The notes under the pieces are model-generated. The model saw only the letters and a program-made list of their open reading frames with translations. It did no database searches and was not told the DNA's origin. A stretch of DNA of 7,698 nucleotides from the IMG/VR virus record IMGVR_UViG_2684622670_000020. One strand, 5' to 3'. Shown one piece after another: positions 1 through 6,022 of this stretch (positions are counted from its first letter, which is position 1; each line of letters starts with the position of its first letter). Both the position numbers and the translations under genes were made by a program. Source of the stretch: a virus. Lineage: Duplodnaviria > Heunggongvirae > Uroviricota > Caudoviricetes.

Positions 1-17
1 TCACGCCGCATCCGGCA
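1..17 (-). repeat. partial REP-like (repetitive extragenic palindrome) sequence at window edge
   Basis: Reverse complement of 1-17 reads TGCCGGATGCGGCGTGA, which matches the start of a common E. coli REP unit as I recall it. The element is cut by the window edge, so the palindrome partner cannot be seen. Confidence 0.35.
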
Positions 18-264
18 TGAACAAAGCGCACGTTGTCTGGCCCCCTGCGGGTAAACGCGCCTGCCACAATTTTTTACCGTTGCTCATGTTGTAAGCGCGC
101 AGGTAGTTATCTGCCGTAGCGGCGATAAACAGCACATTACCCGCAGTAGAGATCGGCCCGCCCAGCATCGGCATTTCCATATTTAACGGTACCGGAACGG
201 GCATCGGGAACGACATGCTGTCCTGCGGCGTACCAATGCGTTTCTTTTCACAAATTGAACTTTA
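1..264 (-). pseudogene. gcd: truncated 3' fragment of a PQQ-dependent (quinoprotein) glucose dehydrogenase gene
   Basis: Minus-strand frame is open from the in-frame stop at 262-264 to the TGA at 1-3 (ORF track 1..216 starts at the first Met). The segment PMLGGPISTAGNVLFIAATADNYLRAYNMSNGKKLWQARLPAGGQ matches my recollection of the C-terminal propeller region of E. coli Gcd. The last 11 codons (TTCALFMPDAA) run into the REP-like sequence and do not look like Gcd. A full gene would need about 700 more codons upstream, which are absent. Confidence 0.55.
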
Positions 265-1800: not shown

Positions 1801-1891
1801 ACTGATATTACGGGCATAGGTCGGCCAACCGAAAAGCGGGAAACCCTACCCGCCTGGCTCGTAAAGTATTTAGGGCGTTGAGGGTAGCGCA

Positions 1892-2821
1892 ATGGCTAAC
1901 GACATTAAAATTCCTTTTCAGTATTGCAACATTGAACGTGCATCAAGATTGCTGGGTTGCGAGATTAGCGATCTCGTGAATTTAGGTGTTACTAAAAAAA
2001 TAGCTTTATGCCTAAATTTATTTGATGCTCGCGCTGTTTTATATATGAATACTGATAGCAAGTCTGCAACTGCTTGGTTTGATACCAGAAATGCAAAATC
2101 GACCACATCACTGATGGGGAACAATATTACTGAATACTCCAGATTTCATCTTTTCAGATACAATTATAACGAGGAGACAGATGAAACTATACACGCGCCT
2201 TTATTCGGTCAAGACTCAGAAAACGGATGCTTTAGCTCTATTGGTAGGGCTTATGGATTGTGGCGCCTTTGGAGTGGGCTGGAAGAGCTACAAAATTTTG
2301 GAGAGTATTCCCTAAGTGGTTTTGAATTAACCCCGTGTCATCCAGAAACTGATAATCCTGCCGTACAACTTTTAATGGTTGGTGAAGATAGTGATTATGA
2401 TGAAGAAGACGATCAAATATTAAAGAATAATATTTCTATAAATGACTTGTGGATTACCGCTCATGATATAAGGCGACTTCTTGACTGTGGTGGCGATTAT
2501 TTTACGCTAACAGATAATTTTGAATCTGTAGAACCTCACAAGATGAATGGCAATGAAATTGTGCACCATTCTGCTGAAAGACATGCAAGAAATCGAGAGC
2601 AAATTTTAATGGTTGCTATGCGTTTTAAAGAAGAGCAACAAAATACTTTTAATGAGACCTGCAGAAAAAACGATGGAACGATTAACTATTCTGCTTGGGC
2701 TCGTGAGTTGATCGCCAGACCTGATTGGTTCATTAATAGTGAATTGCCAATAAAAACAGAAACAAAAATAGCAGCAATTTTAAGTAATGCTCATAAGAGG
2801 CCGAGTGAAAGGTCGCAGTAA
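1892..2821 (+). CDS. hypothetical protein, 309 aa, AT-rich orphan cargo gene
   Basis: Long ORF with ATG at 1892 and GAGGG 7 nt upstream. Strongly AT-rich compared with its neighbours (hand count of 2401-2460 gives 17 of 60 G+C; 5041-5100 in rep gives 34 of 60). Contains an acidic stretch EDSDYDEEDDQ. No catalytic motif recognised. Confidence 0.7.
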   Translation: MANDIKIPFQYCNIERASRLLGCEISDLVNLGVTKKIALCLNLFDARAVLYMNTDSKSATAWFDTRNAKSTTSLMGNNITEYSRFHLFRYNYNEETDETIHAPLFGQDSENGCFSSIGRAYGLWRLWSGLEELQNFGEYSLSGFELTPCHPETDNPAVQLLMVGEDSDYDEEDDQILKNNISINDLWITAHDIRRLLDCGGDYFTLTDNFESVEPHKMNGNEIVHHSAERHARNREQILMVAMRFKEEQQNTFNETCRKNDGTINYSAWARELIARPDWFINSELPIKTETKIAAILSNAHKRPSERSQ

Positions 2822-2885: not shown

Positions 2886-2958
2886 TTACTACTGTATTTT
2901 AATCCAGTATTAAAGATTGCAAAATAGCCTCCGCAAGCATAGATACAGTGGAGGCAAT

Positions 2959-3243
2959 ATGACAAAAACTACATTCATTCCCCCAACTCCAGAACAACGC
3001 CGGGCGCTTCTTGAAGAATACGGTTTTGAATTTGATCGCCGTATCCGTGAAAAGGAATGCCAGGAAATCACCAGTCTGTCGCGCTCAACTCGCTTCAAAA
3101 TGGAAAATGAAGGGCGTTTCCCGCTTCGTTGTCATTTCGGGCGCAATAGCTGTGCGTGGCTTCTCTCTGATGTGCTTTGGTGGGTTCGTAACCCACCTGC
3201 TGTAGATAAAGTCAATAATCCGTACGGTAAGAAAGCTGCATAA
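2959..3243 (+). CDS. alpA: AlpA-family (phage/prophage) transcriptional regulator or excision activator, HTH
   Basis: The segment ITSLSRSTRFKMENEGRFPLRCHFGRNSCAWLLSDVLWWV fits the AlpA pattern (TGLSRSTIYRL..G.FP.P.K.G.R.V.W..SEV..WI). ATG at 2959 is preceded by GGAGG at 2950-2954. The ORF track opens at TTG 2917, which I consider less likely. The protein has an N-terminal extension relative to 70-aa AlpA. Confidence 0.7.
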   Translation: MTKTTFIPPTPEQRRALLEEYGFEFDRRIREKECQEITSLSRSTRFKMENEGRFPLRCHFGRNSCAWLLSDVLWWVRNPPAVDKVNNPYGKKAA

Positions 3244-3292: not shown

Positions 3293-3553
3293 ATGAAAAC
3301 ACTAAACATAAGCCCGAACATCATAGCGATTTGCTGGCTGGTGGGCAATGTGATCAGTGTGCTGGCTTGCTGGTGGATTATCAGCCTTTTGGCTCGATAC
3401 CGCGCTGTTGTAATTCTTTGCGGATTATTCGCTTTATCCAGGCAGCAAGAGAATCATCGCCGTCCTGTTGTTGTGCTTTTTCCATCTTTTCCCGTAAGTC
3501 AGGATCTAAACGGAACTGGAACGGAGGATTACCACGCCTTTCGCTTTTGTGTG

Positions 3554-3581
3554 TTGACACGTTAATTACACCTCATGTAAT
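3554..3581 (+). promoter_or_regulatory. sigma70-like promoter for the rightward replication operon
   Basis: TTGACA (3554-3559), 16-bp spacer, TGTAAT (3576-3581). Predicted start near 3588-3590, about 100 nt upstream of the first operon ORF. Confidence 0.45.
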
Positions 3582-3588
3582 GTATTTA

Positions 3589-3609
3589 TGTGTAATGACA
3601 CATTACACA
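3589..3609. promoter_or_regulatory. palindromic operator overlapping the predicted transcription start
   Basis: TGTGTAATG-aca-CATTACACA is a perfect 9-bp inverted repeat with 3-bp spacer. The half-site TGTAATG also occurs at 3576-3582, overlapping the -10 element. Confidence 0.4.
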
Positions 3610-3693
3610 CAATCGGCGCAAAAAGCAAAGCCCCGCAAGTGTCGTTACCACTGGCAGGGCTTATAACCACAAACCGTTATGAGAGGTAGTTTT

Positions 3694-3891
3694 ATGGCTG
3701 TAAGACAGCATACCCCACGCCTAGCGCACACACAAACGGCCTTTGTGTGGCGTTTTCTAGCACTGAGTGCCGGAGAATCTCAAATCATCCACGTCACCGC
3801 ATGGACAGAACGCGAAGCGCGTAACCGTTGCCCGTCCGGTTGTGTCGCTGTATTCGCCGCCCGTATTCGTCAGGGGGTGAGTCATGCATAA
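3694..3891 (+). CDS. small hypothetical protein, 65 aa (possibly Icd-like, unverified)
   Basis: ATG at 3694 lies 7 nt after GAGAGG; the ORF track's earlier ATG at 3679 has no Shine-Dalgarno. First gene after the promoter. FVWRFLALSA...TEREAR...VFAARI loosely resembles small prophage proteins annotated as Icd-like, from memory only. Confidence 0.5.
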   Translation: MAVRQHTPRLAHTQTAFVWRFLALSAGESQIIHVTAWTEREARNRCPSGCVAVFAARIRQGVSHA

Positions 3892-4111
3892 AATACCCTT
3901 TGATGTTCTTGTTCATTCTGAAAACGCATTAATCCGCGCAAAGGAAATGGACGCATTACTACTTAAGTTAATTGATGTGCCGGAAAGTGGCGATGAATCT
4001 GATTCAATGATGTTTTCTGCCGTGCGTACGCTATTAACGCCTGTTATTAATGAATTAAATACGGTGATGGCAATTCACGAGAATAATAAAACGCATCACA
4101 CCGGAGAATAA
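3884..4111 (+). CDS. small hypothetical protein, 75 aa
   Basis: ATG 3884 overlaps the end of the previous ORF (ATGCATAA), suggesting translational coupling. Acidic, predicted helical; no family recognised. Confidence 0.5.
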   Translation: MHKIPFDVLVHSENALIRAKEMDALLLKLIDVPESGDESDSMMFSAVRTLLTPVINELNTVMAIHENNKTHHTGE

Positions 4112-4116
4112 AAACC

Positions 4117-4416
4117 ATGAAACAGAAAAATTCTGGCTTTACTGCCAGCGGCCTCCCTCGGCCTGAAATCTGCCCCGGCGATATTTACCGGGATAAATAC
4201 GGCAGCACGGTAATGATTAAAGGTGTTGCCGGACGGTGCGTTACTTACCGCCGTGAAGGTTATGAATATGACTGCGTGATGTCTGTTTATCAGTTCCGGC
4301 GTGATTTTTCTCTGGTACAGAACGCAACACGCGGTAAGCCCACCAGCAGGGAAAAAGCACGGGAAAATATTAAGAAAATAAAAAGCATGCTCAGCGCATC
4401 CAGAGGTAAAAAATGA
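4117..4416 (+). CDS. small hypothetical protein, 99 aa, basic C-terminus
   Basis: ATG 4117 with GGAGA upstream; its stop overlaps the rep start (ATGA at 4413-4416). No family recognised. Confidence 0.55.
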   Translation: MKQKNSGFTASGLPRPEICPGDIYRDKYGSTVMIKGVAGRCVTYRREGYEYDCVMSVYQFRRDFSLVQNATRGKPTSREKARENIKKIKSMLSASRGKK

Positions 4417-5819
4417 AACTGGCACCAAACGTAAAACTGTTACCGAAAGATAAACACACTGAGGCGGTTATTTTTGCGGGTGATAATGCTCACTCCTTTG
4501 CAGAACATTACATGATTGCACAGGCCAAAAAAGCAGGCGATCCCATCCCTCCGGTTTACCTGGGCCGTTATCAGTTAAGCGAACTGGACAATTTACAGAT
4601 TGTTGATGAAGGACGATACAGAGCAAAGGTCATACGCGCCGGAAACCTGGACGATATGCAGATGCTGACCATTGCCACAAAACTGGCGATCGCAGGTGTC
4701 CGGGAAGCGCGGTTACTTTCAGAGAATTTCGAACTACTGGAGGACTGGAGCGAGCAACTACCGCGCCTTAAAGAAACCTGGGAACGTGGGGAAAGCCTGG
4801 TCATGAATGGTGGAAAGCGAAAAATCACACTTCCCATCTCATGGGGTTCTGAGGGATTCGACGCGCAGCAAAGCTACGTAATTAAGGGGCTTATTCCGGC
4901 TGAATCATTATGCAGCACCTACGGCGCGAGTGGTTCCTATAAATCGTTCCTCGCTATCTCCTGGTCGTGCCATGTTGCCACAGGTATGGCATGGGGAGGC
5001 CGCAGGGTAAGTAAGGGCGCGGTTATCTATATCGCTGGCGAAGGCAGTATGGGCGTAAAACGCCGCGTTAAGGCGTGGGAGATAACCCACGACAAGGTGG
5101 TTACAGATTTGTGCATCATTAACGCGCCTGTTTTCCCCGCATCGCCTGACTATGTGGAGCAGGTTATCAGGACTGCCGGACTTGTTAAGAGCAGAACGGG
5201 CGAAAATGTGCGGCTGATTGTGATCGACACACTGGCCCGTTGCTTTGGTGGGAATGATGAAAATGATTCCCGCGATATGGGCGCATTTATCCAGGGGTGT
5301 GACGCGATAAAGCAGGCCACAGGGGCCACGGTGCTGGTGGTTCACCATTCCGGCAAGGATGAAACAAAGGGGGCGCGTGGTTCCAGCGCATTCCGTGCCG
5401 CGCTTGATGCAGAGTACCGAATCAGCCGGGAAAATTCAGACGTTACAGCACTGGTGGCGGCGTGTACGAAGATGAAGGACGCAGAGGAGCCAAAAGAAAG
5501 CGCATACGACCTTAAAAGCGTGGAGGTGTTTACCGATACAGATGGCGAAGAGATTGTGTCTATGGTGGTGATTGACGTTCCCCGCGCCCCTGCTGAACTG
5601 GAGCGCATAGAGGAGGCCGGGAACAAGACGGAAAATCACGCCGCATTATGGCAGTGCATCAGAACACGGGCAGCACACAAAGAGCCATGCACTATCGCCC
5701 TGCTACGCGACGATATGAAAAAGCTGGGGTATGAGATGAAGCACTTCCGGCGCTGGCTGTACAAGCTGGAAAATGATGGCGTAATCGTTATTGACGGTGA
5801 TGACGTGCGCCCACTGTAA
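4413..5819 (+). CDS. RepA-like (AAA_25 / DnaB-like RecA-fold) replication ATPase-helicase of the island
   Basis: P-loop-like GASGSYKS, Walker-B-like LIVIDTLARCFGGNDENDS and VLVVHHSGKD, which is the motif order of RepA/AAA_25 replicative ATPases. About 90 C-terminal residues look like a separate possible DNA-binding domain. An iteron array lies immediately downstream. Confidence 0.75.
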   Translation: MKLAPNVKLLPKDKHTEAVIFAGDNAHSFAEHYMIAQAKKAGDPIPPVYLGRYQLSELDNLQIVDEGRYRAKVIRAGNLDDMQMLTIATKLAIAGVREARLLSENFELLEDWSEQLPRLKETWERGESLVMNGGKRKITLPISWGSEGFDAQQSYVIKGLIPAESLCSTYGASGSYKSFLAISWSCHVATGMAWGGRRVSKGAVIYIAGEGSMGVKRRVKAWEITHDKVVTDLCIINAPVFPASPDYVEQVIRTAGLVKSRTGENVRLIVIDTLARCFGGNDENDSRDMGAFIQGCDAIKQATGATVLVVHHSGKDETKGARGSSAFRAALDAEYRISRENSDVTALVAACTKMKDAEEPKESAYDLKSVEVFTDTDGEEIVSMVVIDVPRAPAELERIEEAGNKTENHAALWQCIRTRAAHKEPCTIALLRDDMKKLGYEMKHFRRWLYKLENDGVIVIDGDDVRPL

Positions 5820-5820
5820 A

Positions 5821-6022
5821 AAGTGGGGAGTAAAAGTGGGGAGTATGGGGAATTTAACAAAATTGAAACACTATTCCCCACTTTTCGACCTGTATACATC
5901 CAAAAAAGTGGGGAGTAAAAAACACAATGAAAAACAAAGCATTAGATTCACCCAAAAAACGAGATGGGGAGCAAGTGGGGAATTTAAAAAGTGGGGAGCA
6001 AAAGTGGGGAGTGGTGGGGAAT
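5821..6022. repeat. iteron array, putative origin of replication of the island
   Basis: Ten copies of the core (G/A)TGGGGA: direct at 5823, 5836, 5845, 5908, 5964, 5975, 5991, 6004 and 6014, and inverted at 5875-5881. They form two clusters (5823-5851 and 5964-6020) flanking an AT-rich stretch, immediately 3' of rep. Confidence 0.6.

Follow-up and report, generated by a model that had tools for sequence, protein, structure and literature searches.

Three small coupled genes ahead of rep in a Gram-negative phage-inducible chromosomal island, with an Icd/Kil-family gene as the probable gate of the replication operon

What role is played by three very small open reading frames (ORFs) that stand, chained to each other, between a candidate repressor gene and a replication gene? 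This question is raised by the IMG/VR virus record IMGVR_UViG_2684622670_000020, from which a stretch of 7,698 nucleotides, called the window here, was analysed over its whole length. The window belongs to a Gram-negative phage-inducible chromosomal island (PICI) located between gcd and hpt. An earlier reading, made from the letters of the window without database searches (the sequence-only reading), had placed ORFs of 65, 75 and 99 aa at 3694-4416, with overlapping or near-abutting stop and start codons, ahead of the replication gene rep. Those coordinates and lengths are exact, and the genes are as follows.

3694-3891, plus strand: ORF1, 65 aa, Icd/Kil-family protein, first translated gene of the early operon
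3884-4111, plus strand: ORF2, 75 aa, two-helix hairpin protein by prediction, phrog_2196
4117-4416, plus strand: ORF3, 99 aa, DUF4222 protein, RgdR orthologue by sequence
4413-5819, plus strand: rep, 468 aa, RepA-like AAA_25 helicase (PF13481, 3e-43; phrog_2850, 1e-185), final link of the coupled chain

The answer considered probable is that the three ORFs are genuine early-operon genes of a gcd/hpt PICI, in which ORF1 would act as a division-blocking gate, an antisense RNA would provide silencing, and ORF3 and ORF2 would have an accessory role.

The packing described earlier is borne out by the junctions, which read -8, +5 and -4 nt. ORF1 and ORF2 overlap by 8 nt (ATGCATAA, 3884-3891), ORF2 and ORF3 are separated by 5 nt (4112-4116), and the stop codon of ORF3 overlaps the start of rep by 4 nt (ATGA, 4413-4416). 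Shine-Dalgarno (SD)-like sites can be assigned to all four genes: GAGAGG at 3681-3686 for ORF1, GGGGGTGAG at 3872-3880 for ORF2, GGAG at 4100-4103 for ORF3, and GAGG at 4401-4404 for rep. The start of ORF1 is ATG 3694, which aligns with its homologues. ATG 3679, which would give a 70-aa version, was rejected; it lies within the SD site and is not conserved.

ORFs of at least 60 aa are frequent across all six frames of the window. Therefore, the existence of ORFs of this size is no evidence in itself, and the case for genes rests on conservation. For this purpose 82 copies of the leader motif were collected, giving 78 loci with at least one match to three home-made family profiles. Among these 78 loci, an Icd-like ORF is present in 77, a DUF4222 ORF in about 75, and a close homologue of ORF2 in about 50, and the spacing between ORF2 and ORF3 is exactly 5 nt in nearly all. 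All three frames are thus conserved in related islands, and the lack of such conservation is what the sequence-only reading had named as grounds for giving them up. The ratio of nonsynonymous to synonymous substitution rates (dN/dS), from ungapped comparisons with related loci, is 0.24-0.44 for ORF1, 0.16-0.20 for ORF2 and 0.29-0.36 for ORF3. With the exception of the L007/L009 copy of ORF3 (0.82, at a low dS of 0.19) and one ORF2 comparison mis-registered by a 3-aa deletion, no departure from this pattern was found. A minus-strand ORF of 110 aa at 4096-4428 is regarded as a shadow of ORF3: it is uncalled in annotated relatives, and the plus frame is under purifying selection barring the one low-divergence copy.

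The same cassette precedes three unrelated replication proteins, a RepA-like helicase, a DUF927 primase and a D5/DUF5906 primase, in elements integrated at gcd/hpt, roxA, tqsA and tRNA-Pro. The window holds the minimal form; in most islands, 1-3 additional small ORFs, linked through overlaps of the same sort, separate ORF2 from the Icd-like gene. Besides the window, P4, vB_KppS-Ant and Sakai Sp7 show the 8-nt overlap behind the Icd-like gene, as do several islands of E. coli and Salmonella. Judged by this conservation, the three ORFs are genuine genes heading the replication operon.

The identity of ORF1 comes from profile searches. ORF1 matches the NCBIfam model NF033153 (phage_ICD_like, 'host cell division inhibitor Icd-like') over residues 17-60 with 64.4 bits (7e-18; cut-off 25), a model on which P4 Kil scores 76 bits and residues 12-51 of P1 Icd score 53 bits. 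The P4 Kil protein, of 65 aa, corresponds to the C-terminal 65 codons of an ORF still labelled 'cI gene product' in the P4 record. The minimal segment of P1 Icd that inhibits division and binds FtsZ is residues 12-51 (PMC11897509, 2025), and the stretch of P1 Icd matched by NF033153 coincides with this mapped core. ORF1 also matches phrog_1743/phrog_29966, and the PHROG label 'transcriptional repressor' for this family appears to be a relic of the old P4 cI protein annotation. The closest named relative, ECs1577 of Sakai Sp7, is 86% identical. In tblastn searches of 50,697 phage records, the sole match of ORF1 was in the satellite-like vB_KppS-Ant, and sequence searches of the PDB with ORF1 and ORF3 returned nothing.

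In P4, Kil kills cells, and Eta and Kil are the long and short forms of a single reading frame, translation of which stops premature termination in the region (PMC10111431). The window has no eta-like N-terminal extension, and only the short form is present. In P1, icd and ant overlap by 4 nt, and the P1 record describes icd as 'apparently required for expression of ant' and C4 as repressing icd-ant translation. In the mechanism proposed here, derepression would allow ORF1 to block host division via FtsZ during replication and packaging of the island. Additionally, translation of ORF1 would be the gate by which ribosomes and a termination-protected transcript reach ORF2, ORF3 and rep, as in P1 (icd-ant) and P4 (kil-epsilon...alpha).

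A gate of this type raises the question of whether the product of ORF1 matters, or only the act of translating it. A further element bears on this point.

3724-3757, plus strand: terminator-like stem-loop (11-13 bp) followed by a U-run (UUUUCU), within ORF1 codons 11-22, from a terminator scan and fold

ORF1 could be a leader cistron for ribosome loading and anti-polarity, a doubtful explanation with several observations behind it. Translation of kil/eta suppresses termination at timm in P4 (PMC10111431), icd is required for ant expression according to the P1 record, the stop/start overlaps in the window are tight, and the terminator-like hairpin lies inside ORF1. However, the protein encoded by ORF1 is under purifying selection, as the dN/dS values above indicate, its conserved part is the FtsZ-binding core of Icd, and P4 Kil is lethal. 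A pure leader would not keep 44 residues across P1, P4 and PICIs. The hairpin itself overlaps the -35 of the antisense promoter predicted below, and could be a translation-sensitive attenuator or a protein site at that -35.

It is rather unlikely that ORF1 is chiefly an abortive-infection or superinfection-exclusion effector, fired by an incoming phage protein and not serving the life cycle of the satellite. The precedent is a prophage element of ECOR61 with a DNA primase, in which an accessory gene of a phage sets off programmed cell death, likely through an Icd-like protein, and six linked genes are all required (Silas et al., bioRxiv 10.1101/2023.04.06.535777). That Icd-like protein has a long N-terminal extension, however, which ORF1 lacks, and the PADLOC models gave no match for ORF1-3, rep, the 309-aa ORF, the repressor or the 93-aa ORF of the window. 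Moreover, ORF1 is the conserved first cistron of a replication operon, which fits a role in the life cycle, and the two roles are compatible.

The region upstream of ORF1 and across its start contains the following candidates for its control.

3381-3560, minus strand: divergent gene for a 59-aa ribbon-helix-helix (Arc/YlcI-YnfO-like) repressor candidate (phrog_228, Arc-like repressor, 2e-6; NF041551, 5e-4, under the model cut-off)
3561-3627: early-operon promoter/operator region, with a palindrome at 3586-3597/3601-3612 and TGTAATGT repeats
3618-3712, minus strand: candidate cis-antisense RNA of about 80 nt (predicted), with -10 TATGCT at 3712-3707, start at about 3700, terminator hairpin at 3662-3628 and a U-rich tail to about 3618

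The L004 homologue of the 59-aa repressor reaches 6e-18. Palindromic repeats at 3576-3612 adjoin the repressor gene, islands with other repressors carry different repeats, and the 45 nt downstream of the operator repeats stay conserved where the repeats are swapped. The three ORFs had been described as following a regulated promoter, and this description holds in part. The divergent ribbon-helix-helix repressor and the island-variable palindromes, as judged by comparison, agree with it, but a consensus scan of the region upstream of ORF1 found no canonical sigma-70 promoter.

Within the conserved leader, the predicted antisense RNA spans the SD site and start codon of ORF1, with its -10 within ORF1 codons 5-7. 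The fold of the minus strand has an energy of -31 kcal/mol and a z-score of -2.85, against a z-score of -1.44 for the plus strand. The inner stem of the leader hairpin occurs in 13 variants, all of which keep the pairing; this was judged from folds of each variant, since MAFFT mis-registers the bulged variants in a formal covariation count. Five pair positions swap U and C opposite G on the minus strand, where the plus strand would give A.C mismatches. A U-rich tail follows the hairpin 3' on the minus strand (UGCUUUUUG in the window). About 45 nt upstream of the hairpin on that strand lies the -10-like hexamer TATGCT, with TTGTGT 17 nt further upstream. The pattern TANNNT is present in all 44 unique leaders, at a distance of 4 or 10 nt from the start-codon complement (the start codon of L061 was assigned by hand), and 20 of them have an extended TGn; its background rate in 29-nt windows is 15%. 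Neither a change in the encoded residues nor a first gene outside the Icd-like family removes it. The strand-biased pairing, the U-tail and the -10-like hexamer together predict an antisense RNA of about 80 nt over the SD and AUG of ORF1.

In the quiescent island, this RNA would be made constitutively and would pair with the SD and AUG of ORF1, so that leaky transcripts remain untranslated. It would functionally stand in for the C4 and CI immunity RNAs of P1 and P4. The window gave no match to C4 (RF01695) or isrK (RF01394) at E <=1. Rfam has no family for the leader or its antisense strand, the matches to Plasmid_R1162 (24.5 bits against a gathering threshold of 55) and CrcZ being at chance level, and no such antisense RNA is described in Rfam or in the literature searched on PICIs and CP-933C.

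A known RNA of this design exists in P22. The sar RNA of P22 immI (Rfam RF00262) has a promoter and an intrinsic terminator of its own; this short antisense RNA lies over the ribosome-binding site of an early gene (ant) behind a promoter controlled by an Arc-type repressor. The predicted RNA of the window has the same layout; it differs in that the sar model has no match in the window at E <=1 and in that an Icd-like gene takes the place of the antirepressor gene as target. A sar match at 2263-2329 (minus strand) of L011 belongs to the lambda-like prophage Sp6 of E. coli O157 Sakai and is unrelated to the island.

The leader hairpin at 3628-3662 might also act in the sense mRNA, as a 5' stabiliser or a protein-binding site, with no antisense RNA at all. 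This is unlikely. The plus strand does fold (-15.6 kcal/mol), the hairpin lies in the 5' untranslated region of the operon, and the minus-strand U-tail is interrupted in several variants. However, 253/255 pairs of the hairpin are canonical on the minus strand compared to 205/255 on the plus strand, the minus-strand fold is the more stable one in 12 of the 13 variants, with a gain of up to 10 kcal/mol, and the TANNNT distance remains fixed when the protein sequence beneath it changes.

It can also be asked whether ORF1 and the antisense RNA form a type I toxin-antitoxin-like addiction module, which stabilises the island and is no timing device. A small protein of a toxic family is indeed combined with a predicted short cis-antisense RNA, which would cover the SD and AUG of its gene and have a promoter and terminator of its own, and this layout of toxin and cis-antisense RNA is that of symE/symR and similar pairs. 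The reading is nevertheless improbable: unlike free-standing type I modules, the gene is served by a promoter under repressor control and is the first in a replication operon, and the leader and hairpin also stand before first genes that are not Icd-like (L023, L082).

Several further observations concern the leader in other loci. In the IMG/VR loci L023 and L082, first genes outside the Icd-like family, beginning MADEHFKPYGRVYLV... and MAETNFTRRCIKCG..., stand behind the same hairpin, TAACCA box and antisense -10, which indicates that the leader element is not bound to one protein family. Leaders of the IMG/VR loci L016-L087 combine the operator side, terminator hairpin, SD stem-loop, N-terminus and Icd-like core in many different ways, which suggests that satellites often recombine within this stretch of about 150 bp. 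Several leader types place the anti-SD in the loop of a small stem with differing arms (CGUUA/UAACG, CGUAA/UUACG, GUUA/UAAC, UUGUUC/GAACAA). The Salmonella enterica locus L005 (GCA_009044345.1; region 4290-5010) shares the leader hairpin, and its first ORF is P4-Kil-like. Further downstream, an isrK at 4577-4653 and a C4 at 4678-4765 lie inside an Ash/Eta-like ORF with a second Icd-like domain at its end, and this one operon may have two layers of RNA control.

ORF3 is the member of the cassette with a characterised relative. It matches DUF4222 (PF13973) with 83.2 bits (gathering threshold 27) and is 71% identical, without gaps over 99/99 residues, to ECs1581, the RgdR protein. By sequence, ORF3 is the RgdR orthologue. 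RgdR is a 99-aa basic protein of O-island 51/CP-933C, and it raises LEE1 transcription and type III secretion and lowers motility in enterohaemorrhagic E. coli (EHEC) (PMC3378721; PMC10877973); CP-933C is the PICI named EcCIEDL933. Residues K35 and R61 of ORF3 match RgdR, and A10, K27 and R45 match the inactive variant of the commensal ED1a. More than 360 homologues were found, almost all of 99 aa, and the predicted model consists of a Tudor/SH3-like barrel and a basic helix. In phage records, ORF3 obtained by tblastn only weak matches, to lambdoid DUF4222 genes, which lie in the early-left accessory region adjoining xis. No BLASTP match to P4 orf106 was found.

ORF2 matches phrog_2196 alone (8e-10). 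Its 62 homologues, from E. coli and Salmonella, are nearly all of 75 aa and extend down to 55% identity, with two conserved helical segments around a variable acidic linker. The AlphaFold model is a two-helix hairpin (helices 6-30 and 38-72; pLDDT 85.7). A profile search of 1.8 billion representatives found a family of 17 clusters and no annotated relative. ORF2 had no tblastn match in the phage records, and scanning its alignment over one genome per species gave no locus. Also in phrog_2196 are ECs1580, directly upstream of RgdR in Sp7, and the gene directly upstream of the primase in vB_KppS-Ant. The fixed 5-nt spacing between ORF2 and the DUF4222 gene suggests, by linkage, that the two proteins work together. 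ORF3 would then be a basic Tudor/SH3-like factor associated with nucleic acid or RNA polymerase, which with ORF2 most likely modulates transcription or aids the initiation of replication, and the changes in LEE and motility caused by RgdR in EHEC would be host side effects.

The position of ORF2 invites comparison with P4 epsilon, an antirepressor, and ORF2 might similarly derepress or interfere with a helper prophage. It occupies the same slot, behind a Kil-like gene with the same 8-nt overlap, and is small and helical with a fast-evolving linker. Such a role is nonetheless very unlikely. No similarity between ORF2 and epsilon was found by BLASTP (E 0.30), and their PHROG families differ (phrog_2196 vs phrog_10016/phrog_3688). 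Most islands put other small ORFs between the Icd-like gene and ORF2, which is locked to the DUF4222 gene, and in Gram-negative PICIs it is the helper that induces the island and not the reverse (PMC6092414). That the three ORFs are merely chance open frames, as the many ORFs of similar size in the window might suggest, is scarcely credible given their conserved frame, length and junctions, dN/dS mostly well below 1, matches to curated families, and the characterised orthologue of ORF3.

Several points weigh against the reading of an early operon with a division-blocking gate, antisense silencing and an accessory pair. The functions given to ORF1-3 in this island are predictions from sequence. 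In multiple alignments ORF1 is just 28-33% identical to P4 Kil and P1 Icd, and pairwise BLASTP gave no match between ORF1 and the Kil-containing P4 ORF; only profiles connect them. For these reasons FtsZ targeting by ORF1 is an extrapolation from one family member. The hairpin at 3724-3757 is kept in the closest leader types but is not universal: in others it is missing, or a different GC hairpin (CCCGCAAGGGCGGG) occupies its place. For the antisense RNA, the outer stem and TAACCA box were fixed by the search pattern, the leader variants are related and mosaic and hence not independent, and the U-tail is weak or interrupted in some of them. For ORF3, residues 20-22 are PGD where RgdR has RGD, the motif that gave it its name, and RgdR bound DNA non-specifically (PMC3378721). 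For ORF2, no informative homologue emerged from the profile search of 1.8 billion representatives, Foldseek against BFVD gave none at E <=0.001 and only generic helical hairpins, and a PDB profile search gave chance-level FlgL matches only.

A wider proposal is put forward tentatively, as somewhat short of probable. In at least 78 enterobacterial satellite loci, a cis-antisense RNA of about 80 nt would gate the Icd/Kil-like gene and, by coupling, silence the whole replication operon, a third independent solution of RNA immunity after P1 C4 and P4 CI; the element is conserved across these loci with G.U covariation specific to one strand. The ORF2-ORF3 pair would be an accessory module for replication or transcription, with the virulence effects of RgdR collateral.

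Comparison with named systems places the cassette between several of them. In the left operon of P4 (PLE - CI RNA - kil/eta - epsilon - orf151 - orf106 - alpha), translation of an immunity-controlled early operon likewise begins with a 65-aa Kil/Icd gene, the kil/epsilon overlap is also 8 nt (GTGCGTAA), and the operon ends in a replication protein. The window differs in having no CI/C4 or isrK-like RNA, in being under the control of a divergent protein repressor and a predicted antisense RNA, in ORF2 and ORF3, which are unrelated to epsilon, orf151 and orf106, and in its RepA-like helicase in place of the alpha primase-helicase. The analogy drawn in the sequence-only reading, in which this position in P4 holds small regulators such as kil and eta, is therefore right for ORF1, a Kil-family protein of 65 aa; it fails for ORF2 and ORF3, for which no P4 relatives were detected, and eta is an extended Kil and not a second regulator. 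Its suggestion that small early proteins may act on the host fared better, with ORF1 in the Icd/Kil family and ORF3 an orthologue of a prophage protein that changes host transcription, and on the whole the sequence-only reading is supported. The profile and structure searches that it proposed led to NF033153 for ORF1, PF13973 for ORF3, and phrog_2196 with a two-helix model for ORF2.

In P1 immI (c4 - icd - ant1/2), an Icd-family gene is also coupled to the following gene and its translation is RNA-controlled, as is predicted for the window. P1 relies for this on C4, a sense-encoded RNA that acts in trans, and has an antirepressor gene downstream; the window lacks C4 and continues with ORF2, ORF3 and rep. 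A further counterpart is EcCIEDL933 (CP-933C/OI-51/Sakai Sp7, ECs1577-ECs1582). There, an Icd-like gene of 65 aa, small ORFs, a phrog_2196 gene and RgdR overlapping the replication gene follow each other, and SSB and PerC-family genes lie downstream as in the window. Sp7 differs in two extra small ORFs between the Icd-like and phrog_2196 genes, in its DUF927-type primase, roxA site and RGD motif, and in the absence of a divergent ribbon-helix-helix repressor.

The remainder of the window agrees with this setting. Its left end is the 3' end of gcd (1-216, minus strand), followed before the repressor gene by three further genes.

526-1800: tyrosine integrase, by family match
1892-2821, plus strand: 309-aa gene between int and alpA; phrog_7144 (function unassigned) is its sole match; GC 0.35-0.42
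2917-3243: AlpA-family gene

Downstream of rep are genes for SSB, a ProQ/FinO-domain protein and a PerC-family protein. Directly after rep (5818-6020), AAAAGTGGGGAGTA is repeated about 8 times, in both orientations, and these repeats probably serve as iterons of the island replication origin. A 96%-identical E. coli island of 10.5 kb occupies the gap between gcd and hpt, and its RefSeq/PGAP annotation has the same three coding sequences, then major capsid, decoration and small-terminase (terS) genes. The gene order is that of Gram-negative PICIs, with int, alpA, a small-gene zone, and a replication gene with its origin, and late and packaging genes are seen in the 96% relative. The assignment to this class is based on int, alpA, rep, iterons and SSB in the window and on capsid, decoration and terS in that relative. 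The layout described for Gram-negative PICIs comprises integration, 'Bro', replication and late zones, and 'hpt PICIs' are a named group (PMC10111431).

Apart from these features, several smaller observations were made. An int-alpA RNA (Rfam RF02996) lies at 1809-1875 (plus strand), between the integrase and the 309-aa ORF, with 55 bits against a gathering threshold of 35.8. The low-GC 309-aa gene, with no PADLOC match, is possible accessory or defence cargo. The listed ORFs of 77 and 93 aa that span the iterons may be spurious or overlap the origin. The ProQ/FinO-domain and PerC-family genes (6731-7545, plus strand) share a 4-nt overlap. An island-encoded RNA chaperone of the ProQ/FinO type alongside a predicted antisense RNA is suggestive; the chaperone gene is missing from the closest E. 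coli relative. When the whole window was searched against 5,426 E. coli genomes, the best match was mostly just 90-95% identical, and the matched segment is presumed to be the gcd fragment. This fragment is the sole chromosomal part of the window, and if it is indeed the matched segment, the host may belong to an Escherichia species other than E. coli or to a divergent lineage.

The gene families found here are named in public annotation and the island class has been described. What may be new is the predicted antisense RNA and the recognition that PICIs share a Kil/Icd gate gene with P4 and P1. The first description of PICIs reported only Int, AlpA and Pri-Rep as common to P4 (PMC6092414). 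A Kil-like gate gene common to both, beyond these three, strengthens the evolutionary link between them. The literatures on P1 Icd, P4 Kil and EHEC RgdR are thereby joined, and one small-gene cassette is seen to open the replication operon of many PICIs of E. coli and Salmonella. The locking of RgdR to a two-helix partner and a replication gene suggests that its virulence phenotypes are by-products of satellite function. If the antisense RNA is real, it would explain the silence of the gate gene in islands without C4 or CI RNAs, and it would be a simple switch over an early toxic gene in mobile elements of a highly abundant class.

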